NCBI GenBank assembly: GCA_900313615.1
Contig: OMRP01000016.1
Span: 7,505 to 71,504, forward strand
Direction of reading: 5' to 3'
DNA length: 64,000 nucleotides
Origin: an uncultured Prevotellaceae bacterium
GTDB lineage: Bacteria > Bacteroidota > Bacteroidia > Bacteroidales > Bacteroidaceae
This document shows, piece after piece, positions 46,942 through 63,223 of this stretch (position 1 is the stretch's first letter; each line of letters begins with the position of its first letter). The position numbers and the translations under genes are program-made. The notes under the pieces are model-generated. The model saw only the letters and a list, made by a program, of their open reading frames with translations. It had not been told where the DNA came from and made no database searches.

Positions 46942-47151
46942 ATATAAACATAAACCTCCATTTTATTCATCTGCAAATGGTTTTTTTGGAACATTTAACA
47001 GCCATATTGGGCATTATACCCTTGAAACCCTATCTTTCATCAAAAAAACGTTAGGTTATTTGGCAAGAATCAAAATTAGCCTTAAATTTGCACCGATTTT
47101 TTACTCAACTAATTTAACACTATAATTAAAAACAAAATTTTTAAGAAAACT

Positions 47152-47742
47152 ATGAAAAAATCATTCATGCTGATGATGGTGGCTGTGGCCGCCATGGCAA
47201 CAGTGTCTTGTGGAGACAAGAAAGTACAAACTGAAGGAACTGAGAATGGTGGAGAACAAACCGAACAGAAGGTTGACACTGCCGCCAAGGCTGCGAAGAC
47301 CGAAAAGGTTGAGAAAGCCGACACTGTGAAAGGTCCCACCACATTGGATTTAGGCCGTGCTACAGTGGATGTTCCCGAAGGATGGTTCGTGAAGAACCCG
47401 AGCAAATCATCTTGTCGTATTGAACCATTGGAGAAGCCTGCCATTGAAAAGAAAGGCAATTTCGGTTGGAATGTTTACATCAGTGTATGGGACGGCGATG
47501 TGTTCAAAGCAGAGAAATTCATTGAAGACGACAAAAAGGTATTCAAGGATACGAAGAAGATGCCCGAAGTTACTTTCAATGGCGTGAAATATATGTATAA
47601 TTTCTACGACTATGAATTCGGTAAGCACAGTGTGCTGGCCGCACCCCTGCCTGAAAAGGGAGCCATCAAGGTGGAAGTGGGTGGTTATGCCGTTGAAGAC
47701 GCTGATGTCGACAAAATCCTGAAGACCTTGAAGATTAAATAA
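47152..47742 (+). CDS. Lipoprotein of unknown function
   Basis: TVSC lipobox. Confidence 0.7.
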   Translation: MKKSFMLMMVAVAAMATVSCGDKKVQTEGTENGGEQTEQKVDTAAKAAKTEKVEKADTVKGPTTLDLGRATVDVPEGWFVKNPSKSSCRIEPLEKPAIEKKGNFGWNVYISVWDGDVFKAEKFIEDDKKVFKDTKKMPEVTFNGVKYMYNFYDYEFGKHSVLAAPLPEKGAIKVEVGGYAVEDADVDKILKTLKIK

Positions 47743-47933
47743 ACTTCGAAGGAAGCGTTTGATAAGCGCTATCCATTTGAACAGATATCGTAAATAACTG
47801 CATCTTTCCATAATTGGAAGGGTGCAGTTTGTTGTTATATTCTGCCATCGTTCGAAACTATAATCAAAATCATGCTATTTGGGTATTGCCAGACTAGGAA
47901 AAGATGTGTATCTTTGTCAGCAAAAATGAAGAG

Positions 47934-48713
47934 ATGATAACTGTTGCAATAGGTTTGCTGATACCCCTTTTGGGCACGGTGCTCGGTTCGGCTTTCGTGT
48001 TCTTTATGAAGAAAGATATGCCCGTTCCCTTGCAAAAATCATTGCTCGGCTTTGCCTCGGGAGTGATGGTGGCAGCTTCGGTGTGGTCGTTGCTCATTCC
48101 TGCCATGGAGATGGAGGAGGGAAAGGGGGCGATGGCCGTCGTGCCGGCTGCCGTGGGCTTTTTATTGGGTATGGCTTTTCTGCTGCTTATTGATGAACTG
48201 ACACCCCACTTGCACCTGAGTGCAAAATCTCCAGAAGGCCCTCGGTCACATCTCTCACGCACCGCGATGTTGGCTTTGGCGGTCACCATCCATAACCTAC
48301 CAGAGGGTATGGCCGTGGGTGTCGTCTTCGCTGGAGCAGAAGAGGGTGCGATGGGTGTTTCGGTGGCCAGTGCCGTGGCGGTATCGTTGGGCATCGCCAT
48401 TCAGAATATTCCAGAGGGAGCCATTATCTCCATGCCCATGCGTGCGGCGGGCAATTCACGATGGCGTTCGTTTGCCATAGGCAGTCTAAGTGGCGTGGTG
48501 GAACCTATCGGTGGACTGGCTGTGGTGCTTTTGTCCACATTGCTCATGTCCGTGCTCCCTTATATGTTGGCTTTTGCTGCTGGTGCCATGTTCTACGTGG
48601 TCATTGAAGAATTGATTCCCGAGGCGTCGGAAGGCAAGCACACCAACCTAAGCACCATCGGTTTTGCCATCGGTTTTGTATTGATGATGGTGCTCGATGT
48701 CGTGATGGGATGA
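47934..48713 (+). CDS. ZIP family metal transporter
   Basis: HNLPEGMAVG, QNIPEG, VEP, ELIPE. Confidence 0.92.
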   Translation: MITVAIGLLIPLLGTVLGSAFVFFMKKDMPVPLQKSLLGFASGVMVAASVWSLLIPAMEMEEGKGAMAVVPAAVGFLLGMAFLLLIDELTPHLHLSAKSPEGPRSHLSRTAMLALAVTIHNLPEGMAVGVVFAGAEEGAMGVSVASAVAVSLGIAIQNIPEGAIISMPMRAAGNSRWRSFAIGSLSGVVEPIGGLAVVLLSTLLMSVLPYMLAFAAGAMFYVVIEELIPEASEGKHTNLSTIGFAIGFVLMMVLDVVMG

Positions 48714-48775
48714 TACAACCATCAGTCAATTCAACAAACGATTTGGGTTCAGGTGGTATTCGAATCACAAGACGA

Positions 48776-49078
48776 TTACAGCCATCTGTCAAGGGCATGC
48801 CAGCCGCCACCTTTAGACGGAATCATTAGAAAAATAATAACCGCAACAATAAAGGCAGGGAAAAAAACTTTGACGCTGGCTTCTACGTGGCCTGCTTTGA
48901 ACAGTCGCACTACAGAAATCCATAGAGCAATGTCAAGGCACAGCACAACGAAATCCTGTTCGGACTGAATGGGGAGGCACGCGGCATCATATACCGTTGT
49001 TCGAACTATACGGGGATATACAAGACATAGAGCCACCTGGCGAATTCGCGGATAGGTAACTCCGGCCCGCGATAGCAA
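48776..49078 (-). CDS. Possible small membrane protein (cassette 1)
   Basis: Two hydrophobic segments; start uncertain. Confidence 0.3.
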   Translation of the reverse strand: MLSRAGVTYPRIRQVALCLVYPRIVRTTVYDAACLPIQSEQDFVVLCLDIALWISVVRLFKAGHVEASVKVFFPAFIVAVIIFLMIPSKGGGWHALDRWL

Positions 49079-49253
49079 AAAAGACCCAGAGCCGTGTCGT
49101 GTGGCTTTTACACATCACACCTTGTCAAGAAGAGCCTTATTTTGCCCATAACCTTTAAAAGGTATTAAAAACATTACTTTTGTTTGCGGTTTATTTGGTA
49201 GGTGGTATTATTTTTATTACCTTTGTATCGTCAAGTAATAAAACATCGCAGCT

Positions 49254-49448
49254 ATGAAAAGATACAAAGTTAAAGAGATTATCAAACTTCTTGAAAGCGA
49301 TGGATGGTATCTCTCTGCGACAAAAGGAGACCACAGACAGTTCAAGCACCCGAAGAAGCCAGGGAAAGTGACGGTGAGGGGAAAAGACAGTGAGGTCTTG
49401 AATCAGTTCTTACTGAACAGCATCTGGAAACAAGCGGGGTGGAAATGA
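49254..49448 (+). CDS. hicA: HicA toxin (cassette 1)
   Basis: LESDGWY...KGDHRQFKHP.KPGKVTV. Confidence 0.9.
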   Translation: MKRYKVKEIIKLLESDGWYLSATKGDHRQFKHPKKPGKVTVRGKDSEVLNQFLLNSIWKQAGWK

Positions 49449-49501
49449 CCAGCCTTGCTTATCGACAACAACAAACCAAAACAAAAGACAAAAATACAAC
49501 A

Positions 49502-49915
49502 ATGGAAAAAATCAGAGTAGACGTACAATGGTGCGACAAGAATTTCGGAGCCTCTCTTGGCGAGAATGTGCCCGGTGCCGTAGTGGTAACCGCAAAGACA
49601 TACGAACAATTGCTCAACGATGTGCCTGAATCTCTTCGTTTCCATGTGGAGGGCATGCTTGCCGATGGCGACGACGTGCCCCAGTGGTTGCGCAACGGGG
49701 ACTATGAGCTGGAATACAACCTTGTTGACACAGCCACCATGCTCCATGCCTTTGAGCCTCTTTTGTCGCTTGCCGCCATTAGCAGGGTCACCGGTATCAA
49801 CCAGCATCAGCTATCCCACTACGCCAACGGATTGAAGCAGCCCCGCCCGCAGCAACGGCAGCGCATCGTGGACGGCATCCACAAGATTGGTCGTGAACTA
49901 TTGGCTGTTGTATAA
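49502..49915 (+). CDS. hicB: HicB-like antitoxin with C-terminal HTH (cassette 1)
   Basis: Follows hicA; HVEGMLADGDDVP, TGINQHQLSHYANG. Confidence 0.82.
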   Translation: MEKIRVDVQWCDKNFGASLGENVPGAVVVTAKTYEQLLNDVPESLRFHVEGMLADGDDVPQWLRNGDYELEYNLVDTATMLHAFEPLLSLAAISRVTGINQHQLSHYANGLKQPRPQQRQRIVDGIHKIGRELLAVV

Positions 49916-50161
49916 GTTTTATTGTTTGACGACATTGCTTAGCGTCAGCTTGGCGGGGCATCACTGTCCCGGTCTTTTTCTTACTATCGTTTTCCTTTAT
50001 TGTCCAGCCACCGCAGGAACCAAATGAAGAGACCGACGACAACAATGGTGACAGCCACGTCGACGGCGCGTTTTCACTGCTCCTAAAACGAAGGCTACTT
50101 GACCGCTTCTTTTGTTCAATTTGTCGTTTAAAACGGTTTGGGTTCAGGTGGTAATCGAACC

Positions 50162-50407
50162 TCAATCGCCGCCGTCAGAACTTTCATAGGGGTTATAGTA
50201 AAAACCACCACCCTCAATTACTCCATTATGGCAATATTTCCATACCCACCACTGGATGGGAAATGTAATGATAGGAAGTAAAGCAAAGCTCAGGAGTGTA
50301 AACAGGAAACCACGGAACCAGGTCCTCGGCCACCAACCTCCACAGTAAAAGAGGAAAAGCGCAACCGACACACCTACTATCCATAATATAGTCCAAAGAG
50401 TTTCCAT
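50162..50407 (-). CDS. Small two-TM protein, METLW family copy A (cassette 2)
   Basis: 81 aa; stop codon abuts the repeat. Confidence 0.8.
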   Translation of the reverse strand: METLWTILWIVGVSVALFLFYCGGWWPRTWFRGFLFTLLSFALLPIITFPIQWWVWKYCHNGVIEGGGFYYNPYESSDGGD

Positions 50408-50441
50408 GATTATTAGTTTAATAGAATCTGTCCTAATAGCA

Positions 50442-50678
50442 TCATGGGGCATCACAATAAGCCGAACTTTCACCGAGTCCTTCATCTAACCATCCACCAT
50501 TGCAAAACTTCCATATAACGTATTGGATGGGAAAGGTAACTATAGGAAGGAAAGCGAAACTCAATAGCGTAAAAAGAAATCCACGGAACCACGTCCTCGG
50601 CCACCAACCTCCGCAGTAGAAAAGAATCAGTGCAATAGTTACACCTACAATCCATAATATAGTCCAAAGAGTTTCCAT
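50442..50678 (-). CDS. Small two-TM protein, METLW family copy B (cassette 2)
   Basis: 78 aa; upstream TTTG-N20-TATTTTTG promoter. Confidence 0.8.
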   Translation of the reverse strand: METLWTILWIVGVTIALILFYCGGWWPRTWFRGFLFTLLSFAFLPIVTFPIQYVIWKFCNGGWLDEGLGESSAYCDAP

Positions 50679-50809
50679 AATCTCTATTTTAGGGATTTCT
50701 GCAACAAAAATAACATTATTATTATTATTTTCCAAATTAATTCACCTTTATTTTGGTCTTACGGTTTAAAACATTTTGGGTTCAGGTGGTATTCGAACCT
50801 CAATCTTCC

Positions 50810-51196
50810 ATGTCTCTCGAACTCTGCCAGCAGCACATACAGCGCGGCATACGCGACATCTTCAATGCACAGCTACAGATAGCCGAGCGGCGCATCTACG
50901 GATTCACGCGCCGGCCCGAACTCATCTCGCGCCGAACGAGGCACCTCCGGCGCGAACTCGCAGCTGCACGTCACTCCGTCAGTCATAGCGGGCAGGGGCT
51001 CACCGCCACCGCACAGGTGCCGCTCTACATCCGCTTCCTCGACATGAAGAAACACGGCAACCTCCAAATCTACAACCGGCAGATCTACGGCATACTCTAC
51101 CACCGGGTGCTCAACCGAATACGCTACGGCTACACCGACGAGATAGCACAACAAATAAGAAAAAGATTAATCGAAGCAGGAGCGGTACTAAGGTGA
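50810..51196 (+). CDS. Bacteroidetes prophage tail-region hypothetical protein (cassette 3)
   Basis: IRFLDMK...IYNR.IYGILY...IRYG motif; GC-rich. Confidence 0.6.
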   Translation: MSLELCQQHIQRGIRDIFNAQLQIAERRIYGFTRRPELISRRTRHLRRELAAARHSVSHSGQGLTATAQVPLYIRFLDMKKHGNLQIYNRQIYGILYHRVLNRIRYGYTDEIAQQIRKRLIEAGAVLR

Positions 51197-51200
51197 AAAG

Positions 51201-51437
51201 TCAGTCGTCACTACTGTAATCTGATCCTGGAAAAAGTTCGCCGTCTCCCCATCCGCCGCGATAAATCATCCAAATAACATATTGGATGGGCAATGTGATG
51301 ATGGGAGTGAATATGAGTGTCAACATAACAAAACAAAAACCACGCCACCATGTGCTGGGCCACCATCCTTTGCAATAGAAAAGGAAGAGAGCGACTGCTG
51401 TCACCAAACCGACTAATATAACCCAGAGAGTTTCCAT
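51201..51437 (-). CDS. METLW family copy C (cassette 3)
   Basis: 78 aa, FYCKGWWP.TW motif. Confidence 0.8.
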   Translation of the reverse strand: METLWVILVGLVTAVALFLFYCKGWWPSTWWRGFCFVMLTLIFTPIITLPIQYVIWMIYRGGWGDGELFPGSDYSSDD

Positions 51438-51448
51438 GGAAATAATTG

Positions 51449-51694
51449 CTAATTATAGGCGGCAGTACTTTCATAAGGGTCATAATGCCCACCGCTACCC
51501 TCTATTATACCGTTATGGCAATATTTCCAAACCCACCACTGGATGGGCAATGTGATGATGGGAGTGAATATGAGTGTCAACATAACAAAACAAAAACCAC
51601 GCCACCATGTTCTTGGCCACCATCCTTTGCAATAGAAAAGGAAGAGAGCGACTGCTGTCACCAAACCGACTAATATAACCCAGAGCGTTTCCAT
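51449..51694 (-). CDS. METLW family copy D (cassette 3)
   Basis: 81 aa; 5' ~155 bp nearly identical to copy C. Confidence 0.8.
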   Translation of the reverse strand: METLWVILVGLVTAVALFLFYCKGWWPRTWWRGFCFVMLTLIFTPIITLPIQWWVWKYCHNGIIEGSGGHYDPYESTAAYN

Positions 51695-51828
51695 AACGAC
51701 TTTTGTTTCTTGATGCAAAAATAAACGACGCATAATGCTTTTACAAGGGTTTTTCCCTATTGTTAAGGGGGAAAACCCCAAATTTATGTTAAGTTTAAAA
51801 CGGTTTGGGTTCAGGTGGTATTCGAACC

Positions 51829-52075
51829 AGAGGTTGGAAAGGGATTCGCTGAGCCCGGCAATATATTTTTTCTGCTCCCCGATATGTCTCTTCATGTCGT
51901 CGATGTTCTTCTGCATACTCCTGCCGGCTTCCGCATCACCTTTTTTCTTCGAGTTTAGGAGACGTTTCTGGGAGTCTTCGAGAGTTTTCAGCTCACTCTC
52001 GAGTTTTTTTAGTTCGTTCTGTGCGTTTTTGCTGTTTACGTCGATGACGGCTCTGAATACTTCTTCGTGTCCCAT
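51829..52075 (-). pseudogene. 5' fragment of a probable tape-measure protein, cut by a repeat (cassette 4)
   Basis: IDVNSKNAQNELKKLE coiled coil runs into repeat 4. Confidence 0.55.
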
Positions 52076-52141
52076 AATAATAGGTGGTATGTTTGCTTCT
52101 CTTGCAAATATACCACCTATATCTTTGGAGCGAAAATACCA

Positions 52142-52423
52142 CTAAGCCGGATTCCTCGACTCCTCGTATGTTTGTTGCACGATATCCTCCAGTTCTCTCT
52201 TCGACTTAGCCCTTAATGTGGTAATTTTATTTATAGAAGACAGCCAAAGGACGGCACAATATTCATTATTCTTGAAATCAACATACGCACTAACTACCTT
52301 ATTCTCGCTACCGAGATCATACATGTTCCTTAGCCTGATTTTGGCCTCAGGTCTATCCTTTTTTTGTCTTCCCATCAGCCAGACAATTATCCAGGATGTT
52401 ATTAAAAGTGCGAGAAATTCCAT
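52142..52423 (-). CDS. Small membrane-anchored protein (cassette 4)
   Basis: 93 aa with an N-terminal TM segment. Confidence 0.65.
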   Translation of the reverse strand: MEFLALLITSWIIVWLMGRQKKDRPEAKIRLRNMYDLGSENKVVSAYVDFKNNEYCAVLWLSSINKITTLRAKSKRELEDIVQQTYEESRNPA

Positions 52424-52491
52424 ATATAGTATGTTTAGTGTTCGTTGTAAAAACCCCCTATACTCCCGCACCGGGGGCTGAAGAGTTCTAT

Positions 52492-52935
52492 CTAAAATGA
52501 TTTATTAAGACGCTGCACGGTAGGTTGCTCTAAAGGCAGACCGTGAGCCAAATCACTTGCAAACTTATTGATACCTTCGCGTATCTTCTTGACCTGGGCC
52601 TCGTGAGGTACTCGCAATGACGCGATATATTGTCGAAGCACAGAAGCGTTCATGCCGATGTATTTTGCGAATGCTGTCACATCGATTGGGTAATAGTCAA
52701 AAAACGAACCTATGTCAAGCCTGAAGTCAAATTGTACTTCAGGGAATCTACGTCCCTCTTCTTCCTCCATTTCTTTGTATTCTTTTACAGTGACAATGAT
52801 GTCATCCATCGCTTCGCGGGCGGTCTTGCCATAGCCGGCCAGGCCACACTTACCGACAGGATCGGGAGAAAAGCATGAGAAATTACCTTTTCCTTTTCCG
52901 CGTTCAACGTAAACAATTCTCTTAACGGTTCCCAT
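52492..52935 (-). CDS. hicB: Orphan HicB-like antitoxin (cassette 4)
   Basis: GYGKTAREAMDD, FAKYIGMNASVLRQY HTH. Confidence 0.78.
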   Translation of the reverse strand: MGTVKRIVYVERGKGKGNFSCFSPDPVGKCGLAGYGKTAREAMDDIIVTVKEYKEMEEEEGRRFPEVQFDFRLDIGSFFDYYPIDVTAFAKYIGMNASVLRQYIASLRVPHEAQVKKIREGINKFASDLAHGLPLEQPTVQRLNKSF

Positions 52936-53019
52936 ATATAATGAGTTATAAATATTATCAAAGTAAAGAGTCCTATTATTAATTAGCAAAGTAATTCGGC
53001 ATGGAAAAAGTTGTGGGGG

Positions 53020-53061
53020 TTATTCCCCCAACAACTTTTTTAAGATTTCTCGGAGAGTACC
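53020..53061 (-). pseudogene. Last 13 codons of a hicA-like gene, cut by repeat 5
   Basis: Translates to GTLREILKKLLGE*, upstream of hicB. Confidence 0.6.
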
Positions 53062-53157
53062 GTTTAAAACGGTTTGGGTTCAGGTGGTATTCGAACCGGA
53101 ATTGCTCCAATTCTTTGGACACCTTCAGTTTACTTTGTCTCTCCATCGCCACACCAT

Positions 53158-53343
53158 TTAAAAGCCCATAGCATCCATCATCGCATCGTATTCCATAGGA
53201 TTACTTGGCATGTCACCATACATGCCGTCAGTCAGCGCATCCCAGGAATCCTCTTCTGTCCATTCGTAGCCACCTTCATTGTAGCTTTCGCACTCGTAAT
53301 CATCGTACTCTTCATAAGAGTCATCATAATAATCTCTTGCCAT
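53158..53343 (-). CDS. Very acidic 61-aa protein (cassette 5)
   Basis: D/E/Y-rich with a single basic residue; only gene in a 301-bp cassette. Confidence 0.75.
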   Translation of the reverse strand: MARDYYDDSYEEYDDYECESYNEGGYEWTEEDSWDALTDGMYGDMPSNPMEYDAMMDAMGF

Positions 53344-53562
53344 AATCTTTTGTTTTTAATCGTTATTACTCTTATTTCTTTACCAAAACACTCTGGGCGT
53401 TTAAAACGGTTTGGGTTCAGGTGGTATTCGAACCCAAAAGTACTTTTTTTCTGAATTATTGATTAAAATGGTTATGTTAATATAGTATTTTAACCTCAAT
53501 GCCTGTCGGTGTCTTAGTTGTGGTTTTATTGAATACGCGATGTTGCATATCTTATATCTTTG

Positions 53563-54168
53563 CTATGTGATATAAAGCATTCGGTATTTCAATCGCGCAC
53601 TATGACACTTTGGGCAGTACAGCGGGTCATCATTTCCTTTTAGTATGTCTTCCTCCTTATTTCTGATTATTGAGCCACATTTTGGACAGACGAAATCTTT
53701 ATCAGACTCTCCAAACGTATGATATTGTTTACTCTCGTTGTGTTCTATAACGAATGCATGGCAGTTAGGGCATTGCCTGCCAATATCACATGACACCGCA
53801 CCATGAACGAAACTTATAATATCCTCATGGTAACCACAGTCGCAACATTCAATCTTTCCCGCGCCACCCATTTGGGAAAAACAGAGATAATGTTCATCCG
53901 GTTTCAAACCCAATTTCTTTTTCAACATAATTTCCTCTTTATCTTTTTTCTTTTCTTCTCTTGTTTTCTTGTATTTGCTAACTGCTACATTAATTAAAAT
54001 TACAGGTAGGAACACGGTTGCGAAGGGTGCCGTAATCAGAAGAGTCAACCACTGCTTAAACGTTGTTTTCTCTGAATCCTTGTTCTTCTTGTTATTATAG
54101 ACCCGAATGCTGATGGTTAAAACAAGACTTATAAACCAATAGATGAGTACATAATGAATCCAATTCAT
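53563..54168 (-). CDS. Two-TM protein with four CxxC zinc-ribbon motifs (cassette 6)
   Basis: CCDC, CPNC, CPKC, CPKC; own TATATTTG promoter. Confidence 0.75.
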   Translation of the reverse strand: MNWIHYVLIYWFISLVLTISIRVYNNKKNKDSEKTTFKQWLTLLITAPFATVFLPVILINVAVSKYKKTREEKKKDKEEIMLKKKLGLKPDEHYLCFSQMGGAGKIECCDCGYHEDIISFVHGAVSCDIGRQCPNCHAFVIEHNESKQYHTFGESDKDFVCPKCGSIIRNKEEDILKGNDDPLYCPKCHSARLKYRMLYIT

Positions 54169-54292
54169 AGTTTTCCCTTCTGTATTGTTTAAGATTAAAA
54201 TGGTTCTGTTACTTATAGAAACTTTGCAAATATAAACATAATAATCGACACAAACAAAATAAATGGGCAAAAGCCTAAAATATGGCACGGAT

Positions 54293-54583
54293 TTATAAAA
54301 ACACTTCCATACCATTGAGGTTATCATAGACCAGCCCGGAGCCGTAGCAGACCTCCGCATTGAAGAGCTGGCACGTCGAAAGTGTCTCGTCGCTTTCTAT
54401 GAGGTCGAGGACACGGAAAGGCAGATTGTTGTCGCCTCCCCACGGCATATAGGCGAGGTTTTTGTCAACGATGAAGGGAGCGGTGTCCTCCGATTCACGG
54501 AAGACTTCGGAGGAGTTGACCGTAAAAGCAGCACTTGCTTTGAGGTCGGGGATGAGTTCTACGCTGTTAAAAGAAAAATCCAT
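54293..54583 (-). pseudogene. N-terminal fragment of a phage portal protein (cassette 6)
   Basis: PWGGDNNLP...DETLSTCQLFNAEVCYGSGL; ends after ~90 aa. Confidence 0.65.
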
Positions 54584-54649
54584 AACTTTGTTTTTGATGC
54601 AAAGTTATGGATTGGTATGTGATGGGGAAAAGACAATAACTATAGACTA

Positions 54650-55099
54650 TTAGTCATTGTCGATGTTCTTTAACATGAAAAGGCACCTTCCTTTTCTATA
54701 GTCTTTAGGTGACAATCTCTTTTTACAATCAAACGCATTTTTATAATCGACAACGTCCCATTCCCATGCTTCCTGCATGATATATTTTTTATCGTATAAA
54801 ATCCATATAAGTTTATCCCACTCATAGTTGGTTGCTTTAGGAGCCATTGTCACGAAGCTACCAGGCTTTCCACTGGGACGATTGGCTTTTACTTGGTATC
54901 TTATGCCATTGAAGACAAAATCAGCCCCCTTGCTAACAGCGGTTTTGTCTTGCATATATTCAGAATATTGGTCTTCAGACATTCCTATGAGCATTGCAGC
55001 ATCATACTCTGAAAGAGAACTGGTAATCGATGGTGATACTCCAAATTTACTTTGCCATGCTAAAGCAATTTCAACAAGATTATCTCTAAGCATATACAT
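54650..55099 (-). CDS. PD-(D/E)XK-like nuclease-fold protein (cassette 6)
   Basis: SEYDAA...GADF...YQVK. Confidence 0.55.
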   Translation of the reverse strand: MYMLRDNLVEIALAWQSKFGVSPSITSSLSEYDAAMLIGMSEDQYSEYMQDKTAVSKGADFVFNGIRYQVKANRPSGKPGSFVTMAPKATNYEWDKLIWILYDKKYIMQEAWEWDVVDYKNAFDCKKRLSPKDYRKGRCLFMLKNIDND

Positions 55100-55225
55100 T
55101 ATTTTTAAGTTTAAAACGGTTTGGGTTCAGGTGGTATTCGAACCGACGAGTATTTTTATCTTAAAAGTTACGGGATTTGGCATGTCGTGTCCTTTTTTTT
55201 TATTATATTTGCAAAAAAAACAAGA

Positions 55226-55501
55226 ATGAAGTTAAAGAAACGAGGTAAGAAACTCTTCGCCTACCTTTTAGTGGCACTGCTCTCTTTTCCGGTGGCATTG
55301 ATTTCATGGTGCTCATCTTGGTATGATGTATGTACCGTAAGTCTCATTATTTTCGTTTTTTCTGTAGTCAAAAGTATCTGTATATATTTGGCCAACTTTT
55401 ACGACAAATACGGGCTTTTGAGCAGGCAAGGGCCAGACACACTGTTCGAATACGAGCCGGGCGACAAAGAGTATGAAGAAGAGAAGAAATGGCAGCGATA
55501 G
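55226..55501 (+). CDS. Small two-TM protein (cassette 7)
   Basis: 91 aa, own promoter; TAG stop is completed by the first G of repeat 8. Confidence 0.75.
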   Translation: MKLKKRGKKLFAYLLVALLSFPVALISWCSSWYDVCTVSLIIFVFSVVKSICIYLANFYDKYGLLSRQGPDTLFEYEPGDKEYEEEKKWQR

Positions 55502-55579
55502 TTTAAAACGGTTTGGGTTCAGGTGGTATTCGAACCCTGAATTTTTTTGGAGATTAAAAAAATTTGTTTATCGTTTGCA

Positions 55580-55653
55580 ACGAGGATTCCGTAGCTAATG
55601 ACTACCGATTCTTCGCCAGAATGAGGAATGAGCAATCATTCCTCAAACTTTTT
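55580..55653 (+). ncRNA. Candidate sRNA, two hairpins (cassette 8)
   Basis: Stem with 7-nt CUAAUGA loop; perfect 10-bp tgaggaatga-gcaa-tcattcctca hairpin plus U-tract. Confidence 0.5.
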
Positions 55654-55725
55654 ATAGAACACAAATGATATGGTGGAGTTGAATTTCGTTCATTTTGTTG
55701 TATTTTTGCAGTAAAAAAATCAGTT

Positions 55726-56160
55726 ATGACTATTATATCCAACTCCGAAGACAGCAAAACAACATTTCTCGAGCTAATAAATCAGAGAAGAGCTTTGAAC
55801 AACGAACTGTCAGTTGTGCTTCGCCATTACACAGGCATATCGTCCACTCTACTTGCTCTATTGGCTGTGTTTGGTGATATAGCTTCGTTTTCCCTTCCAG
55901 TAAGGATTCTGATTTCAGCGAGTATGACGTGTTTACTTTCATCTGTTCTGTCGGGAGTGTGGTGCTGTATGGCAGTTTATCTAACACGCGAAAGAGCCAT
56001 GGGAAGAGTTCTCGAACAGCTGAGGACGAAAGCCGGAAATGCTCAAGGGTCAGTATCTCCCCCTTTCGGATTCTCCTTTTTTGTGCGATTCTGCCCCACC
56101 ATGTTGTGCTTGGGCGTTCTATTCTTATGGCTGAGCGCCATGTTTTTGTTGTTTTTTTAA
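55726..56160 (+). CDS. Three-TM membrane protein (cassette 8)
   Basis: 144 aa, hydrophobic segments, TATTTTTG -7 element. Confidence 0.7.
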   Translation: MTIISNSEDSKTTFLELINQRRALNNELSVVLRHYTGISSTLLALLAVFGDIASFSLPVRILISASMTCLLSSVLSGVWCCMAVYLTRERAMGRVLEQLRTKAGNAQGSVSPPFGFSFFVRFCPTMLCLGVLFLWLSAMFLLFF

Positions 56161-56223
56161 TGCTTTCTTCCATTTTTTTTGTGTTTTTTATTTGGAAGTT
56201 AAAATATTTTGTTTATCTTTGCA

Positions 56224-56290
56224 GTTGGAATAGCATCAGGGTTGAGCCTTGGATTGTAACTCCAGGTAGTTCTTCCTTTTTGCTATTTCT
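56224..56290 (+). ncRNA. Candidate sRNA with a tRNA-anticodon-like hairpin, convergent on the MuF gene end (cassette 8)
   Basis: TTTG-N19-TATCTTTG promoter; CTTGGA-TTGTAAC-TCCAGG; closing gaatagca/tgctattt stem. Confidence 0.5.
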
Positions 56291-56954
56291 TTTTTATGTA
56301 TTTCTTTATTTCTTCTGGATTGTCAGAAATGGAATGGAGGACGTATTCTCCCCAGTCCCACTCCCAAACAATTATACATTGTTCATCCCCTTTTACCTTA
56401 GTGGAGAAAATATGACTTTGCTTTAATTTTGGCTTTTGGTTATGAGGCGGAAGTGTCGATGGTCCCAGGTATTCACACTCTTTTTCTTCAAACACTTCAT
56501 TTATACGTAGTAGCATCTTGTTTTTTTCTTGATAGTGTTTGTTGGGTTGGTTGGTCCATTCTGTTATTGATGCTCTTGATATATTTATAGGATGGGGAAA
56601 TTTCGATGTGTTGATAGAAGTCCCCTGTAGTGGTTTGGCTTGTTTCCTTGTCTGCTTGGCATCAGCATTTGCTAATGATCTGACAATCCGGCATGCTGCA
56701 CACAGTTCATTCTCGGGCACGAAAGCGAGGTTGACTTTTCCCTGTGCGATGTCGCAGTCTCGGCAACGTCGTATGGTGTATGGGTTGTAGTCCGGAATAG
56801 TCTTCTGCTCTATGCCTGGATTGAAGTGGAAGATGCCCTTGTTGTCCTTTCCGGTTGCCGCCTCTCCGAGTGCCATTGCCTCGTCGTGCGGGGTCACGGG
56901 ATACTTTGACTTGCGGACCTGGACAACAGTGCATCGGCAGTTCCAGCCGTTTGG
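56283..56954 (-). pseudogene. 3' fragment of phage head morphogenesis protein (MuF) with C-terminal extension, cut by repeat 9
   Basis: Begins PNGWNCRCTVVQVRK directly at the repeat. Confidence 0.8.
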
Positions 56955-56990
56955 GTTTAAAACGGTTTGGGTTCAGGTGGTATTCGAACC

Positions 56991-57151
56991 GTGAGTATGG
57001 CCCTTCCCTGGTTCCTGACAGGCGACTTTCGTCGCTGCCAAGCCTGGGAGAAGAAGGCCTGACGTTCGAAGTTCCGGTCGAACTCGTCGGTGAGTTCTAC
57101 CTGAATGTCGCGGAGGATGTTTTTTATTATTTTCTGAATATTTTCGGGCAT
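56991..57151 (-). pseudogene. 5' fragment of phage virion morphogenesis protein (Mu gpG-like), cut by repeat 9 (cassette 9)
   Basis: DIQVELTDEFDRNFERQAFFSQAWQRRKS. Confidence 0.72.
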
Positions 57152-57188
57152 TTTGTTTGGAGGTTAGGGATTTCTTTGTATCTTTGCA

Positions 57189-57275
57189 GTGTCCTTAGTG
57201 ACTACCCGCTGAGTATGCGTGGGGATTGGGCTTTATCGTACCGTCCCATTTGGCTGTCTTCGGATAGCCTTTTTT
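57189..57275 (+). ncRNA. Candidate sRNA with promoter and terminator (cassette 9)
   Basis: TTTG(57156)-N19-TATCTTTG(57179); ggctgtc-ttcg-gatagcc-T6 terminator; no ORF inside. Confidence 0.55.
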
Positions 57276-57425
57276 ATTGTTCGATACGTTTTCTGAACTC
57301 CTTGTAGAACGTTCTCTTCATAACAAAGTTCCTTTCCACAGACACCATCTTTTTCCCAACTGCTACCAGCACTTCCAGTGCCTCGTTGTTAGCCTCGAAG
57401 TATTGTTTGATTTCTGTGGCCATTC
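57274..57425 (-). pseudogene. 3' end of an upstream phage gene (probably a MuF extension), cut by repeat 10
   Basis: 49-aa tail MATEIKQYF...FRKRIEQ*; upstream of the virion morphogenesis gene. Confidence 0.45.
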
Positions 57426-57483
57426 GTTTAAAACGGTTTGGGTTCAGGTGGTATTCGAACCATTAAAAATGAAATAAGTCATT

Positions 57484-57729
57484 TTAATCGCTACTACTAT
57501 AAAACGCAGCACTCTTTTGTGTGTTGCCATCTCCATCTCCCCATCCACCATGGTAAATCATCCATATAACATACTGAATAGGGAAAGTGATAATCGGAGT
57601 AAACAGACAAGTCAATATGATAAACAAAAAACCACGAAACCATGTACTGGGCCACCATCCTTTACAATAAAAAAGGAAGAGAGCCACCGTCAGCACAACC
57701 CCAACCAATATTGTCCAAAGCGTTTCCAT
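57484..57729 (-). CDS. METLW family copy E (cassette 10)
   Basis: 81 aa; upstream promoter region homologous to cassette 2. Confidence 0.8.
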   Translation of the reverse strand: METLWTILVGVVLTVALFLFYCKGWWPSTWFRGFLFIILTCLFTPIITFPIQYVIWMIYHGGWGDGDGNTQKSAAFYSSSD

Positions 57730-57860
57730 GATTTCTGATTGAAATAACTTCACCACAAAAATAATATTAATAATAATATTTTCCAAATTAATTCACCTTT
57801 ATTGTTTAAAACGGTTTGGGTTCAGGTGGTATTCGAACCTATCGGCATTGCGAACAATTC

Positions 57861-57940
57861 AGGTTGCCTGATTCATAGTTTGGGAACACGCTTTTTATAG
57901 TTGTTTCGGTGGCAGTAGGTTAACCGATTCATAGTTTAGG
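57861..57940 (+). repeat. Iteron-like direct repeats upstream of rep
   Basis: aggttgcctgattcatagtttggg / aggttaaccgattcatagtttagg (20/24 identical, 56-bp period). Confidence 0.5.
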
Positions 57941-57970
57941 CAATTATTATATGTATATACATACGTGCGT

Positions 57971-59239
57971 ATGGAGAAGAAACAAGGAATATCGAAAGAG
58001 GAAATGCGCCAGTTGGTGGAGTCGCATTCGTGGATCAAGTCGCCGTTCGCCTACACCAAACTGGGTGCCAACCTCTCGCTGGTGCAGCAGCAGTCGCTCC
58101 TCATGGTCAGCGACCATCTGCAGACGTATATCAAGGACTTCTACAACCTAAAACTGGATAAGTCGAAGAAGCGCCCCAAGTCGCTGTTCACGGAGCACCT
58201 TTTGAAGAACGGAATACCTCCGTTCCGCATCTATCTGGCCGACCTCGGTGTGCAGGCGGGCAACTACCGCGACGTGCGCAAGGCCATCAACGAAATGGCG
58301 GTGATGGTGGAGCACCCAGTGCTCGACGATGACGGCATCCCCACGGGTGAGACGGCCTTTAACCCGGTCTTCGAGGAGTTCAGGGTGAAAGAGACTGGCG
58401 ACTACTACCACTACGAGCGCGAGAATGAGGAGGGGCTGATGGAAATGGCGGAGTCGGTGCGGCACTATGGCTACATCGACGTGCAGATCAACCCGAAGGT
58501 GGCCGAGTGGGCTTTTGATATGTCGGCGGGATATGTGAACCATTTGAAACTGATAGCGCGTTATAGTACAAAGCGCCCCACGCCGCGCCTCTATCTCATG
58601 CTGATGCGGGCGATAGGGCAGGGGAAGAAACGGGTGCGCTACACGCTTCAGGAATTAAAGGAATACCTCGGTATCGTGCCCTACGTCAACGAGAAGGGCG
58701 AGACAGTGACACCTTACCCCAAGTTCGCCCACTTCCGCATCAAGGTGCTCGACGCGGTGCGCGACGACCTCGACCGCATGGCGAAACTCAACCAGACGGA
58801 CATCCGATTTGAGTATGATCTGATTTATCCCGGCAGCCGTAAGCGTGGCGAACCTGAATATATTGAGTTCAAGATTGAGCGCACTCAGTTGGGCGATGCG
58901 TATAATGTTATCGTCAATCACCAGCCGTCTGAGATAAAGCAGCAACCCCGTCAACAAGAACTTTTTATGGAAGAGTATAAAGAGAAGTTTAAACAGTGCT
59001 TGGCAGAAATGGCTGAAAAGGTTGAAGATGACAGTGTAAAAGCGAAATTGAAAATGATGCAGTTTGAGCATTTCGACACAACCAAGAAGGTGCTTTACAT
59101 TCAACTGCCCGACTCCGACTATTACCAATGGATAGAGAGCGACAACGTAATCCGATTCGTATGGGGACATCTTTCCAAGCATTTCGGGAAAAGCATCCAG
59201 CTCCAATATAGGCTGTTGAAAAATTCACCGAAACCGTGA
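57971..59239 (+). CDS. Rep_3/RepB-like replication initiator (cassette 11)
   Basis: RLYLML, TLQELKEYLGI, YPKFAHFRIKVLD winged-helix pattern. Confidence 0.8.
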   Translation: MEKKQGISKEEMRQLVESHSWIKSPFAYTKLGANLSLVQQQSLLMVSDHLQTYIKDFYNLKLDKSKKRPKSLFTEHLLKNGIPPFRIYLADLGVQAGNYRDVRKAINEMAVMVEHPVLDDDGIPTGETAFNPVFEEFRVKETGDYYHYERENEEGLMEMAESVRHYGYIDVQINPKVAEWAFDMSAGYVNHLKLIARYSTKRPTPRLYLMLMRAIGQGKKRVRYTLQELKEYLGIVPYVNEKGETVTPYPKFAHFRIKVLDAVRDDLDRMAKLNQTDIRFEYDLIYPGSRKRGEPEYIEFKIERTQLGDAYNVIVNHQPSEIKQQPRQQELFMEEYKEKFKQCLAEMAEKVEDDSVKAKLKMMQFEHFDTTKKVLYIQLPDSDYYQWIESDNVIRFVWGHLSKHFGKSIQLQYRLLKNSPKP

Positions 59240-59312
59240 CAACCTGTACCAAATGTTAAAATCGAAAAGGGTATATTTGCATCGTAAACGAATATATCCT
59301 TTTTGATTTTTT

Positions 59313-59594
59313 ATGAGCGAGGAAAACGAAAAGAAATCTCCGACCCTTGATGATTTCATCATCACCGAGAAGGTGGATGCCTTCTGCAAGCAGTATCGCC
59401 CGGTCAAGGAACACACCTTCGCTACCGAGGCTTTCAACGAAGAGCGGCTGCGTGAGTTCTTCAAGGCTTACGAACTGTTCTCGCAGGGCGACCCTTTGAA
59501 GGTGTATATCGACGAGCTGGCCGCACGCGACTATCACATGTCCGTATCGGTATATGGCGAGCCAGCTATTATAGTGGAGGAAAAATTCGACTGA
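59313..59594 (+). CDS. Phage hypothetical protein (cassette 11)
   Basis: 93-aa ORF with TATATTTG promoter. Confidence 0.65.
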   Translation: MSEENEKKSPTLDDFIITEKVDAFCKQYRPVKEHTFATEAFNEERLREFFKAYELFSQGDPLKVYIDELAARDYHMSVSVYGEPAIIVEEKFD

Positions 59595-59628
59595 CATCTA
59601 TCAAACCAATCAAAATAATTGTATCAGC

Positions 59629-60456
59629 ATGGCAAAATATTATTATGAGTTTCCTTTCGACAGCAAGGAGGGCAGGGCACTGGCAAAGTTCCACCACGCC
59701 TGCGTCAACGCCGAGCGCATGGCGGAGAAGTATGCGAAAGGTATGGGGGCGGTGTCTTATTATACAAGCCCGCATTACTTCACCGGCGGCGTGGAATACT
59801 TGGTCTTCGCAGATCCCAAGAAGGTGAACACCGACATCTGGAGGCTGGCCAACAAGACTAAAGACGGCGAACAATGGTGGGAACCTAATGTGGAGAAAGT
59901 GGCGGGGTGCGTGAAGGCGCGTGAGAATTTCACGCCATCAGACGTGGCCGGGCGCACTTATTCCAAACGTCCCAGCACATGGGACGAGGTGCGCAGGACG
60001 TACACTCTGGACGAATGGCTGGCTTTCATAGGATTCAAGACATCCGGCGACAAGGAGATAGACAGCAAGGCCATAGTGGGCTTGTTGGGCGACAAGCAAT
60101 TCTACAAGTACATCGACATCATCCCGAATGCCGCTCCCGTGGCGGGCAGGAAACGAAGTCGTGACGGGTCTAAAGCCGTGACCGCCGAGCAGGAGCGGAT
60201 GAAACTGCCGGTCGTCAGGACAGAAGACTTTTACCAGATAGTTCATGCCCACAACGTAGCCGCCGAAAACGAAAAAGAAGGAAAGCCCCTGAAGGTGGAT
60301 GAGAGCACGCCTGTGTTTTTCGCCCATGCTGGGAAGTGGAACATCGGGCTTGACCGTCTAATAGACTGCGGGGATTATGACGGCTTCGCGGAAATCACCG
60401 CAGGGATGTTCACGGCAAGGAAAAACTTCATGCTGCGAGAATTGAATAGGAAATAG
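59629..60456 (+). CDS. Phage hypothetical protein (cassette 11)
   Basis: 275-aa ORF. Confidence 0.65.
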   Translation: MAKYYYEFPFDSKEGRALAKFHHACVNAERMAEKYAKGMGAVSYYTSPHYFTGGVEYLVFADPKKVNTDIWRLANKTKDGEQWWEPNVEKVAGCVKARENFTPSDVAGRTYSKRPSTWDEVRRTYTLDEWLAFIGFKTSGDKEIDSKAIVGLLGDKQFYKYIDIIPNAAPVAGRKRSRDGSKAVTAEQERMKLPVVRTEDFYQIVHAHNVAAENEKEGKPLKVDESTPVFFAHAGKWNIGLDRLIDCGDYDGFAEITAGMFTARKNFMLRELNRK

Positions 60457-60475
60457 AAAACGGCAATTCTCCCAA

Positions 60476-61126
60476 TTACCGTTTGTTGGGGTTTACGTGT
60501 GGGCGCGGAGCGTCTCCGTAATCTGCCACACCTTCGGGGCTGTAACCGCTATAGGAAGACTGGCGCCCGCCTTGCGTGAGTGCCAGTCTTATTGTTTGCA
60601 TCCCGTCGCTCACCATGTCCTTGTATTCGTCTATCCGAGCTTCATATTGGCTGATGCGCTCTTCGTATTGCCGGCGCATATCATCTTCACGCTCCTGATA
60701 TTCTCTTCTAAGCTGTGCCTCTTTCTTCAGCTGCTCGTCTTTTATCCGTTGAATCTCCTGCATGTGGTCAATTTTCATTTGCAGGATTTCCATCTGCGAT
60801 GTATTATCTTTCTCGTTCTTTTCATTTTTCGTCGCTTCGCTTTGCAGCCGTTCATCCCCTCGCACTGAGGCGCGATGTGCCGTTTTTGGAATGACTGTCG
60901 CCGGACTGTCGCCGTCAAGAAAGAACTCCGAAAGGTCTATGTCATAAAGATTGCAGAGCAGCACCATTTTTTCTACTGGCAGAGGATTGGTCTTGTCCTT
61001 CATCCATCGTTTCAGGCTCACATTATTCACCTCCAGGTCTTTCATAAGTTGGGTGAGTTTTAGCCCCGACTTCTCGAACCACTGTCCAAAGAAATCGGCG
61101 TTGTACGAATACTTTTTCATAATCAT
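60476..61126 (-). CDS. XRE/CI-like HTH repressor with coiled-coil C-terminus (cassette 11)
   Basis: LTQLMKDLEVNNVSLKRWM...LLCNLYDIDLSEFF; divergent overlapping promoters upstream. Confidence 0.72.
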   Translation of the reverse strand: MIMKKYSYNADFFGQWFEKSGLKLTQLMKDLEVNNVSLKRWMKDKTNPLPVEKMVLLCNLYDIDLSEFFLDGDSPATVIPKTAHRASVRGDERLQSEATKNEKNEKDNTSQMEILQMKIDHMQEIQRIKDEQLKKEAQLRREYQEREDDMRRQYEERISQYEARIDEYKDMVSDGMQTIRLALTQGGRQSSYSGYSPEGVADYGDAPRPHVNPNKR

Positions 61127-61251
61127 TCTGGTTTATGTTTGACAAATGCTTTTCTTAAAAAATGTTTATCTAATCAAAATAAATAATCATTATAGATTGA
61201 TATTTATTTTAGTTTCGTACTTTTGCAACAAAGTTACAAAATATCAATGAA

Positions 61252-61322
61252 ATGACAAAAGAAGTATTTTTGAAATTGCACGCCCCTGGCGGTCATCTTG
61301 AAGCAAAAGACCTGACCGCCGA
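61252..61322 (+). pseudogene. Start of the divergent early gene, cut by repeat 12
   Basis: MTKEVFLKLHAPGGHLEAKDLTA runs into the repeat. Confidence 0.5.
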
Positions 61323-61358
61323 GTTTAAAACGGTTTGGGTTCAGGTGGTATTCGAACC

Positions 61359-61476
61359 CTTTAATTGGTAATTTTTTGAGGCAAAGATAGTTGTAATTTT
61401 TATAATTACAAAAAAATGAAAGAAATAATGAGCAATTTATATTATTCCTTCATTTTTTTAGTAATTTAGCCGAAAA
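61359..61476 (-). promoter_or_regulatory. Array leader with a promoter facing into the array
   Basis: AT-rich; minus-strand TTTG(61412-61409)-N19-TATCTTTG(61389-61382); palindrome TTGTAATT-N5-AATTACAA. Confidence 0.78.
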
Positions 61477-62334
61477 ATGGCAAAGCAAACTTTAGTATTC
61501 GAATCATCAAAAGAACTATCCTTAAGAGATGGTATGTTGGTCATTACCAACAGGGAGACTGAAGAGACGACATTGCGCTCGTTGGAGGACATCCAGATGA
61601 TCATGGTGGATAATCATTCCGTCAAGATAACGATTCCTCTCATCGCTAAATTATCGAAATTAAATATCGGTGTTGTGTTCTGCGACGAGAAACATATGCC
61701 TGTGTCGATGTTGTTGGATTTGGAATCTAATACCTTGCAGTCGAAAAGGATAAGATGTCAGTTGGCTGCATCAAAACCAGTCAATAAACAAATATGGAAA
61801 CAAATTGTAGAGGCTAAAATCCGTAACCAGTCTTTATTGCTTGAGAAATTGGGCATTGGCAAATCATTGCTTGCCACCTACTACAACAATGTCAAAAGTG
61901 GCGATTCCACCAATCGGGAAGGGATGGCTGCAAGAGTGTATTGGTTGAAACTCATTGGAAAGAACTTTATTCGTGATAGGTTTGGAGGACCTCCGAATGC
62001 TCTCCTTAATTACGGCTATACCGTGCTCCGTTCTATGGTGGCCAGAAGTCTCATGAATGCAGGACTGCTTCCTCTCGTGGGAATCTTCCATCATAATTGT
62101 CACAATGCTTTTCCTTTGGCCGATGATGTTATGGAACCATATAGACCTTATGTTGACTATCGGGTAATAATAATGCTGAAAGAAGGACTGACGGAAGTGT
62201 GCAGAGAATCGAAGAGACGGCTATTGGAATTATTTTATCAAGATATTTCTGCTGACGCAATGTCATTGACGGCTTCTTCACTGGCTGGTATTTATGAAGA
62301 AGATGGTAGAGTTATTGTTTATCCAACGATTTGA
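61477..62334 (+). CDS. cas1: CRISPR-associated integrase Cas1 (type II-like)
   Basis: FCDEKHMP, KIRNQ, SGDSTNREG, NALLNYGY, GIFHH, LADDVMEPYRP. Confidence 0.95.
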   Translation: MAKQTLVFESSKELSLRDGMLVITNRETEETTLRSLEDIQMIMVDNHSVKITIPLIAKLSKLNIGVVFCDEKHMPVSMLLDLESNTLQSKRIRCQLAASKPVNKQIWKQIVEAKIRNQSLLLEKLGIGKSLLATYYNNVKSGDSTNREGMAARVYWLKLIGKNFIRDRFGGPPNALLNYGYTVLRSMVARSLMNAGLLPLVGIFHHNCHNAFPLADDVMEPYRPYVDYRVIIMLKEGLTEVCRESKRRLLELFYQDISADAMSLTASSLAGIYEEDGRVIVYPTI

Positions 62335-62338
62335 AAAT

Positions 62339-62653
62339 ATGTGGATCTATGTTGTTACAAGTTTCACCCGCTATAACAAGGTGGGACGAAAAGCAAAGGA
62401 TGTTTTTCAAAAGTCAATAGTTAAAGATGGATTCTTCCAACTACATGAGAATCTGTATGTCAGGTATTGCAGCACGGTAGGTAATGCTAATATGCATAAA
62501 GAACGAGTAAAGAACGTCATACCGATAAAGTGTTGCGATGTGAGCATTATTATGACCGCTGATAGTCAGGAAAGCAATATCTATCACAGCCTTAATAGGA
62601 AAAGGTCAAAATGTATTGTTTATGGAAAACATGGCAATGTGGAATTCTTCTAG
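62339..62653 (+). CDS. cas2: Divergent Cas2 (type II-like)
   Basis: Follows cas1; KDGF.QL...YVRYC...A..H.ERVK..IP; usual FD(L)P motif replaced by TSFT. Confidence 0.82.
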   Translation: MWIYVVTSFTRYNKVGRKAKDVFQKSIVKDGFFQLHENLYVRYCSTVGNANMHKERVKNVIPIKCCDVSIIMTADSQESNIYHSLNRKRSKCIVYGKHGNVEFF

Positions 62654-62666
62654 AATTGTTTTACTA

Positions 62667-62712
62667 AACAAAGAGCCATTTCCCTCTTTAAGACAGGAAA
62701 CGGCTCTTTGTT
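62667..62712. terminator. Bidirectional terminator between cas2 and rpiB
   Basis: aacaaagagcc...ggctctttgtt. Confidence 0.7.
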
Positions 62713-62732
62713 ATATTGCTACAAACTGAGCG

Positions 62733-63173: not shown

Positions 63174-63223
63174 AATTGCTAATCCTAAATTTTGAATTGT
63201 TAATTATGAATTGTGAATTGTAA

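Follow-up and report, generated by a model that had tools for sequence, protein, structure and literature searches.

A Cas9-less Cas1-Cas2 clade related to type II-C CRISPR systems and its arrays of kilobase phage inserts in rumen and gut Bacteroidales

Introduction

[quoted passage not shown] In the CRISPR_2 array of Sulfolobus islandicus LAL14/1, a single 2-kb pseudo-spacer, SiL-E1, has been described, and its authors suggested that it might have arisen through faulty processing of a prespacer or through recombination with existing spacers (Open Biol 2013, PMC3718332). Our literature search for Cas1-Cas2 systems with long spacers returned only this single pseudo-spacer and no paper on a clade of such systems. 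Here we analyse a stretch of 64,000 nucleotides, hereafter the window, from the genome of an uncultured rumen Prevotella (assembly GCA_900313615.1, contig OMRP01000016.1, positions 7,505 to 71,504), in which an array of direct repeats separated by gene-sized inserts lies beside the CRISPR integrase genes cas1 and cas2. In the loci analysed here, long spacers prevail throughout a clade of Cas1 proteins, and the nearest printed case that we could find is the single pseudo-spacer of S. islandicus (PMC3718332).

From the evidence presented below, we consider it probable that the locus belongs to a Cas9-less offshoot of the type II-C systems, in which Cas1-Cas2 would paste phage pieces of about 0.3-3.5 kb directionally at the cas1 end of the array, beside an inherited promoter.

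Results

A CRISPR-like array with gene-sized inserts

The array is built from a 36-nt direct repeat that occurs in 12 copies, all on the plus strand, starting at positions 48731, 50126, 50764, 51793, 53062, 53399, 55109, 55501, 56955, 57426, 57804 and 61323 of the window (Table 1). Counted from the ZIP transporter gene at one end to cas1 at the other, the repeats carry 7, 1 and 2 mismatches to the consensus and then none in the remaining nine copies, which agrees with the series given in an earlier first-pass annotation of this DNA; five of the seven mismatches of repeat 1 lie in its outermost five bases. A degenerate terminal copy of this kind, in a series of direct repeats of 23-50 nt, is what is expected of a CRISPR array. 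The uniform short spacers of such arrays (about 26-72 nt) are not found, as the eleven inserts, here called cassettes, measure 301-3,483 bp each in the window and the corresponding spacers 189-2,641 bp in related loci. The repeat is confined to this locus within the 2.77-Mb, 33-contig assembly, and an exact-pattern scan of metagenome contigs with it gave no match. Both strands of the repeat begin with G(G/T)TT, and its orientation relative to canonical type II repeats is ambiguous by eye. The outer flanks consist of ordinary chromosomal genes, the ZIP transporter gene on one side and rpiB and a transketolase gene on the other, and a gap of 118 nt, the leader, separates the last repeat from cas1.

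Phage origin and edges of the inserts

Several cassettes are excerpts of phage genomes. Cassette 11, which is the cassette next to cas1, shows 1 mismatch in 3,483 nt to contig L062, found via the helix-turn-helix (HTH) protein of the cassette, and the match extends from the first base after repeat 11 to the last base before repeat 12, flush at both edges. L062 itself does not contain the repeat; it carries phage-type genes on both sides of the matching segment (a methyltransferase gene, DUF3310 and an exonuclease-like gene) and is syntenic over about 8 kb, past both cassette edges, with a 36-kb IMG/VR viral contig. The near-identity and the flush edges support the view of the first-pass annotation that this 3.5-kb cassette is the newest and that the system was recently active. 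The alignments of cassette 4 with the phage-type contigs L082 and L081 both end at the cassette edges, where a tape-measure gene that continues in the phage breaks off after about 80 codons. Likewise, the matches of cassettes 8 and 9 to the Mu-like prophage on contig L070 stop at 56954 and 56991, which are cassette edges, and a 197-amino-acid (aa) open reading frame (ORF) in this region matches Pfam LPD3. The identities between cassettes and phages (99.97% for cassette 11, 93-99% for cassette 8, 86-89% for cassette 9 and 95.5% for cassette 4) depend on the phages sampled, and an age gradient along the array is therefore not claimed.

The phage neighbours of cassette 11 do not match any other cassette of the window, the cassettes have no match elsewhere in the host assembly, and a megablast search of the whole array against GenBank phages gave no match. 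The candidate explanation that the array is one prophage with inserted repeats was rejected, since cassette 11 alone matches the phage contigs, where it is flanked by sequence other than that of the adjacent cassettes. At the excerpt edges on the donor contigs of cassettes 11 and 4, we found no repeat, no att-like or attC-like site and no shared motif. Flush edges, the lack of a donor site, arbitrary cuts and a perfect 36-nt duplication for every insert together form a signature of staggered integration across the repeat, and this signature argues against site-specific recombination, insertion of a mobile element into a spacer, or insertion of repeats into a pre-existing prophage. As a side observation, the second base past the insert at the repeat's GTTT end is G in all four donors compared (TG, GG, CG and GG in L062, L082, L070 and position 184547 of contig C20 of the window's own genome, G000), which are too few for a motif.

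Whole small genes are present in several cassettes, including a HicA pair and an HTH regulator. In cassette 1 (49254-49915, plus strand), the HicA-type toxin gene is overlapped by a 156-aa partner gene and has a consensus promoter of its own at 49194; such a toxin-antitoxin pair could stabilise the far end of the array. A 208-aa ORF (51449-52075, minus strand) runs from cassette 4 through repeat 4 into cassette 3, and its start is the truncated N-terminus of a phage tape-measure protein, which means that the repeats can fuse reading frames between cassettes. In one strain (L068:1302, corresponding to 60149-60203 of the window), 55 bp are deleted from within the 275-aa gene of cassette 11, so this gene is not uniformly maintained.

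Probable growth of the array at the cas1 end

The first-pass annotation placed new insertions at the cas1 end, and the polarity of repeat decay, nested repeat variants and comparisons of strains all support this placement. In six related arrays, the repeats likewise decay away from cas1. L002 has a single changed repeat and L009 has three variant repeats, all at the far end from cas1, and the two variant repeats of L008 are also at its far end despite the array lying downstream of the cas genes. Counted from cas1, the mismatches run 0,0,1,1,1,2,3,1,2,9 in L033 and 0,0,1,2,2,6,5 in L038, and these two arrays contain nested variants: the four cas1-nearest repeats of L033 begin with GG and the six older ones with GT, and in L038 the three cas1-nearest repeats begin with AG and the two that follow with GG, the final two being degenerate. 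Such nesting is expected if every new repeat is copied from the leader-proximal one, and decay alone would hardly produce it. L033 (318-508, 2277-2352 and 6482-6685) also contains, immediately behind one of its older repeats, an internal leader copy with 98.4% identity over 126 nt; a 114-nt piece of cas1 and a 76-nt element in three copies are present as well, close to an ISL3 transposase, and these internal elements suggest a past duplication or disruption of the module.

Comparing strains for additions at the leader end, as the first-pass annotation had suggested, gives a consistent picture. Sister strains at the ZIP end were found through a neighbouring 196-aa protein, an identity look-up with the ZIP protein having given no match. 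In two of these, L030 and L031, the flanks are 98.5% identical to the window, and the trailer, the degenerate repeat and cassette 1 are held in common, with divergence from cassette 2 onward. At the opposite end, L022 and L023 are 99.0% identical to the window through cas1 and transketolase, and the sequence immediately preceding their last repeat is a different one. The Cas1 protein is the same in L037 and L038 of the P0006 family, and upstream of the last repeat the sequences of these two are wholly unrelated. A common far end and a variable cas1 end, with different cas1-proximal inserts, constitute the classical CRISPR pattern. The visible 98-140 nt of the L022/L023 insert are 100% identical to contig C20 of the window's own genome, at a site within an FHA-domain gene that is 1.7 kb away from a prophage portal gene, the prophage also encoding a terminase, and the newest insert of this type of sister strain was thus apparently copied from the C20 prophage region. 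That region (G000 C20:174500-194500, L027) encodes a P22-like portal and a large terminase and adjoins FHA-domain, PP2C phosphatase and Sel1-repeat genes. The same array as in the window is found on eight metagenome contigs from other samples at 99.5-100% identity, which indicates that it is stable over short times. Taken together, the decay of repeats, the nested variants, the strain comparisons and the 99.97% identity of the cas1-proximal insert strongly indicate that spacers are added at the leader end with duplication of the repeat.

Cas1, Cas2 and the effector

The catalytic triad of Cas1 is intact, and residues E148, H205, D216, D217 and E220 are invariant in our alignment; an 8-aa deletion in this protein is common to the long-spacer clade described below. 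The Cas2 protein is divergent, as no Pfam model matched it and its NCBIfam cas2 score lies under the cut-off. In six of six long-spacer loci aligned, the FDLP motif of Cas2 is changed to TSFT and the conserved Asp is gone, and Cas2 of the clade is also without the N-terminal extension of its relatives; in L007, which is on the earliest branch of the clade, the Asp is still present. The Cas9 model TIGR01865 found no match in the assembly, which is 81.6% complete, so that absence is not proven. Beside cas1 in L002, L003, L008, L009, L033 and L038 there is neither an ORF of at least 700 aa nor a match to a Cas9-type domain. An exact complement to the repeat of at least 11 nt, as expected of an anti-repeat, is found nowhere in the window, and an Rfam search of positions 46000-64000 gave no match. 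Of the components of a type II CRISPR-Cas system, the locus thus has a type II Cas1 with its catalytic residues and a Cas2, with no Cas9 or anti-repeat of a trans-activating CRISPR RNA detected in these searches.

A clade of long-spacer loci

Arrays of the same kind accompany relatives of this Cas1 at 55-91% identity, namely L002, L003, L009, the P0020 family (L033-36), the P0006 family (L037-42), the P0054 family and L008. Their repeat sequences are their own, the spacings range from 225 to 2,677 bp, and no gene for Cas9 lies next to cas1. Where Cas1 identity is 51% or less, the relatives carry just upstream an ORF of Cas9 size (1,048-1,550 aa), one of which was confirmed by RuvC_III and HNH matches, and the arrays of these Cas9-bearing relatives lie downstream of cas2 with a period of 65-66 bp. 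A maximum-likelihood tree of Cas1 proteins unites all long-spacer loci in a single, fully supported clade (100/100) that is nested among the canonical type II-C proteins of Bacteroidales; these Cas9-less loci would be an offshoot within this group.

Across seven arrays, 47 of the 48 spacers tallied are long. The exception is in L008, an early-branching close relative of L007, whose array combines one 30-nt spacer at the cas-proximal end (11034-11133) with long spacers of 190-2,076 bp behind it and whose cas1 frame is reduced to 254 aa. In five families with the array upstream, the last repeat stops 118-120 nt ahead of the cas1 start, and in L004 and L005 a repeat-like stretch fits the place of the leader-proximal repeat in the alignment. 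The chromosomal neighbourhood of the module differs in each species.

Predicted promoters and palindrome of the leader

Alignment of eight leaders from different families, with an average column identity of 70%, shows conserved blocks that comprise TAA, a -7 box, an A-run, a T-run and a -7-like box before cas1. The array-facing promoter motif reported in the first-pass annotation is real. Its full motif (TTTG, 18-20 nt, TAnnTTTG) occurs in 13 copies in the window against 0.9 expected from shuffles, an excess of about 14-fold that none of 100 shuffles reached, which indicates a real signal in this genome. Its -7 box, TAnCTTTG on the minus strand, is invariant and at the same position in all eight aligned leaders, and is thus kept in eight of nine families when P0054, which is without the box, is counted. 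The -33 TTTG is present in five of the eight leaders, four times at N19 and once at N21. From the usual spacing of Bacteroides promoters, transcription would start near 61377 on the minus strand. Canonical type II-C relatives have a TAnnTTTG box in the cas-proximal leader that also faces the array, and the leader promoter is therefore more simply taken as an inherited promoter for the precursor of CRISPR RNA (pre-crRNA). The TAnnTTnG box at the other end of the leader is the probable promoter of cas1. Eight of the 13 consensus promoters of the window fall in the array stretch (49194-61412), seven inside cassettes and one in the leader, the 12.7-kb array making up 20% of the window; those at 56191 and 57156 on the plus strand precede short ORF-free units.

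The palindrome noted in the first-pass annotation is present in the leader where it was reported, and its proposed role as an operator was rejected: it is missing from the seven other aligned leaders, and inverted repeats with arms of at least 8 nt occur in 9.5% of shuffles of this AT-rich leader (p ~0.1), which is near chance. An imperfect hairpin (61405-61460), flanked by the A-run and the T-run, lies between the two leader promoters. Hairpins of this type are strong only in the window (z -3.1) and L002 (z -6.2), with different arm sequences, and weak or absent in other leaders, so a conserved element is not claimed; the hairpin could be a bidirectional terminator that insulates cas1 from read-through of the array.

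Table 1. Coordinates of the array, its neighbours and the cas genes in the window
Feature	Position	Strand	Evidence or remark
ZIP transporter gene	47904..48713	+	Pfam Zip E 1.2e-22; chromosomal flank at far (trailer) end
Array of twelve repeats and eleven inserts	48731..61358	+	repeat mapping
Terminal degenerate repeat, 7 mismatches, oldest end	48731..48766	+	same copy in L030 and L031
Cassette 1, HicA-type toxin and partner gene, oldest insert	48767..50125	+	PF07927 (HicA_toxin) for 64-aa product; in L030 and L031 at 98.5%
Cassette 4, siphovirus tail-module excerpt	51829..53061	-	95.5% to L082 and 91.0% to L081, phage-type contigs
Cassettes 8 and 9, Mu-like prophage pieces (portal, MuF, virion-morphogenesis neighbourhood)	55537..57425		86-99% matches to L070
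Cassette 11, cas1-proximal, newest, 3,483-bp phage excerpt	57840..61322		99.97% identical to contig L062
Leader-proximal repeat, inferred integration site	61323..61358	+	position relative to cas1 in related families
Leader of 118 nt, divergent promoter region between array and cas1	61359..61476		alignment of eight leaders
Bacteroidetes-type promoter TTTG-N19-TATCTTTG facing the array	61382..61412	-	23 nt from last repeat
Palindrome TTGTAATT-N5-AATTACAA	61391..61411		inside promoter spacer and -33 box
-7-like box TAATTTAG (pattern TAnnTTnG)	61462..61469	+	ends 8 nt before cas1 ATG; T, A, TT and G positions invariant in eight aligned leaders
cas1, type II family, 285 aa	61477..62334	+	Pfam Cas_Cas1 E 1.6e-27; NCBIfam cas1_NMENI 276 bits, cut-off 120
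cas2, 104 aa from MW start, divergent type II Cas2	62339..62653	+	BLASTP E 4e-17 to Cas2 of a canonical Cas9-bearing relative

Discussion

In this study, we have described an array in a rumen Prevotella that apparently grows like a CRISPR array and holds gene-sized pieces of phage DNA. From the adjacency of the genes, the linkage of the trait to one Cas1 clade and the integration signature at the repeats, we infer that Cas1-Cas2 is the integrating enzyme. It would most likely integrate DNA at the leader-repeat junction next to cas1, and each integration would duplicate the 36-nt repeat and so give one-directional growth of the array. Loss of the length ruler would then allow phage pieces of about 0.3 to 3.5 kb to be pasted in, the donor being cut at arbitrary positions. 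The 118-nt leader would carry two divergent promoters, a consensus Bacteroidetes promoter into the array, derived from the pre-crRNA promoter of Cas9-bearing ancestors, and a weaker box before cas1.

Several observations weigh against this account. The internal leader copy in L033 indicates that arrays are also reshaped by duplication or recombination. In L031, a contig of a sister strain from the Joint Genome Institute, cassette-2-like content is followed by unique sequence, a perfect inverted repeat copy and reversed content like that of cassettes 8 and 9 (5550-6743); this inverted copy is not explained by simple growth at the leader end and may reflect an inversion between repeats or a chimera of assembly. 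Turnover of the array is slow compared with many CRISPR arrays. Finally, the P0054 family (63% Cas1 identity) not only is without the -7 box but also has a second repeat type in opposite orientation.

The first-pass annotation suggested that the leader promoter may act like the common promoter (Pc) of an integron under operator control, and an array of this kind would store expressed gene cassettes downstream of a Pc to which a repressor binds at the palindrome. The conservation of the array-facing promoter and the whole small genes in several cassettes, such as the HicA pair and the HTH regulator, would fit such an arrangement. However, seven cassette-borne consensus promoters speak against a common Pc, and so do the terminator-like hairpins in the array, of which one closely follows the first gene after the leader and another, bidirectional, lies in mid-array. 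A crude call of coding strands for the 48 spacers of seven arrays placed 20 in the direction of the leader promoter and 12 against it and left 16 ambiguous, a bias that is not significant. Phage genes, such as that for the tape-measure protein, are cut at cassette edges; the palindrome is near chance and confined to one of the aligned leaders; and in canonical relatives a leader promoter faces the array as well, which makes an inherited pre-crRNA promoter the simpler reading. The hallmarks of an integron, which are an adjacent IntI, attC sites in cassettes and donors, and promoterless co-oriented cassettes, were not found. No tyrosine recombinase gene adjoins the array, no integrase-family match was obtained on the ORFs scanned in or beside it, the flanking genes being ZIP, cas1, cas2 and rpiB, and the donors are without an attC-like site. 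We therefore regard an integron-like function as very improbable. No more credit can be given to an origin of the inserts by homologous recombination of a phage with two adjacent ordinary short spacers that match it, the route put forward for SiL-E1, by which Cas1-Cas2 need not paste long DNA at all. This route would likewise give flush edges between perfect repeats (PMC3718332), and the 30-nt spacer of L008 next to long ones could be read in its favour. But every insert would need an adjacent, co-oriented pair of short spacers against the same phage, and no such short precursors were seen in the seven arrays, where all spacers but one are long. It also leaves unexplained the nested repeat variants and why the trait tracks one Cas9-less Cas1-Cas2 clade with an altered Cas2, and we consider it highly improbable.

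A further alternative accepts the same mechanism of integration and differs in taking the array as functionless, so that after the loss of Cas9 a ruler-less Cas1-Cas2 pastes stray DNA that is tolerated as decaying junk. The lack of a detected effector or anti-repeat, the deletion in the 275-aa cassette gene of one strain, the unbiased orientation of the cassettes and the identity of the array across many samples are all compatible with this idea. Against it, Cas1 and Cas2 are intact and conserved over several Bacteroidales families, down to about 55% Cas1 identity, and the length of the leader is fixed and its promoter box invariant, which argues for purifying selection on the module and on transcription of the array. 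On balance, a functionless array appears unlikely to us. The leader promoter presumably fires, and the stored DNA may have a use. We return to directional integration of long phage pieces by Cas1-Cas2, and tentatively extend it to the possibility, which we rate as less than even, that the module is a directional recorder in rumen and gut Bacteroidales: a Cas1-Cas2 without ruler and without Cas9 would write kilobase pieces of infecting or resident phages beside a conserved promoter, and the stored and transcribed DNA might serve a purpose independent of an effector, for instance antisense silencing, interference based on homology or the expression of captured immunity genes.

Of a CRISPR system, the long-spacer clade retains the integrase and the leader with its promoter, and apparently also growth in one direction, yet it stores gene-sized phage DNA without an effector. 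The locus in the window is a well-defined case, with an insert of 3,483 bp, a near-identical donor and flush edges, and it would permit asking whether Cas1-Cas2 alone writes kilobases into a genome at a defined site. The answer would bear on the evolution of CRISPR from casposons, on the biology of phages and hosts in the rumen, and on tools for DNA recording or for the integration of large inserts.

How does this locus compare with known systems? With integrons it shares ordered gene-sized inserts, probable growth at one end beside an integrase gene and a promoter that reads into the array. It differs from them in that the integrase would be Cas1-Cas2 and not a tyrosine recombinase, that the donors are without a recombination site, and that the inserts, which are fragments taken arbitrarily from genomes, often interrupt genes, bring promoters of their own and lie in unbiased orientation. 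SiL-E1 resembles the cassettes in being a mobile-element piece of kilobase size that is enclosed by two perfect repeats, with every base at its edges accounted for, but it is a lone exception in a normal type I/III archaeal array, whereas nearly all spacers are long here, in a whole effector-less Cas1 clade. Like casposons, the locus appears to combine a Cas1-family integrase that handles kilobase DNA with duplication of the target. A casposase, however, moves a defined element, which has terminal inverted repeats and includes a polymerase gene, whereas the inserts here are unrelated phage fragments, with no shared ends of the casposon type visible at the edges examined, and the Cas1 is a bona fide type II CRISPR Cas1. 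The closest known system is the type II-C adaptation module of Bacteroidales. Unlike that module, the locus has spacers of 0.2-3.5 kb instead of about 30 nt, an array upstream of cas1 instead of downstream of cas2, a Cas1 with an 8-aa deletion, a Cas2 without the conserved Asp and the N-terminal extension, and no Cas9 or anti-repeat that could be found. Both have in common a Cas1 that scores with cas1_NMENI, a homologous Cas2, a 36-nt repeat, an AT-rich leader with an array-facing promoter, a degenerate repeat at the far end and, very probably, growth at the leader end, and the long-spacer clade is nested among the Cas9-bearing relatives of this module.

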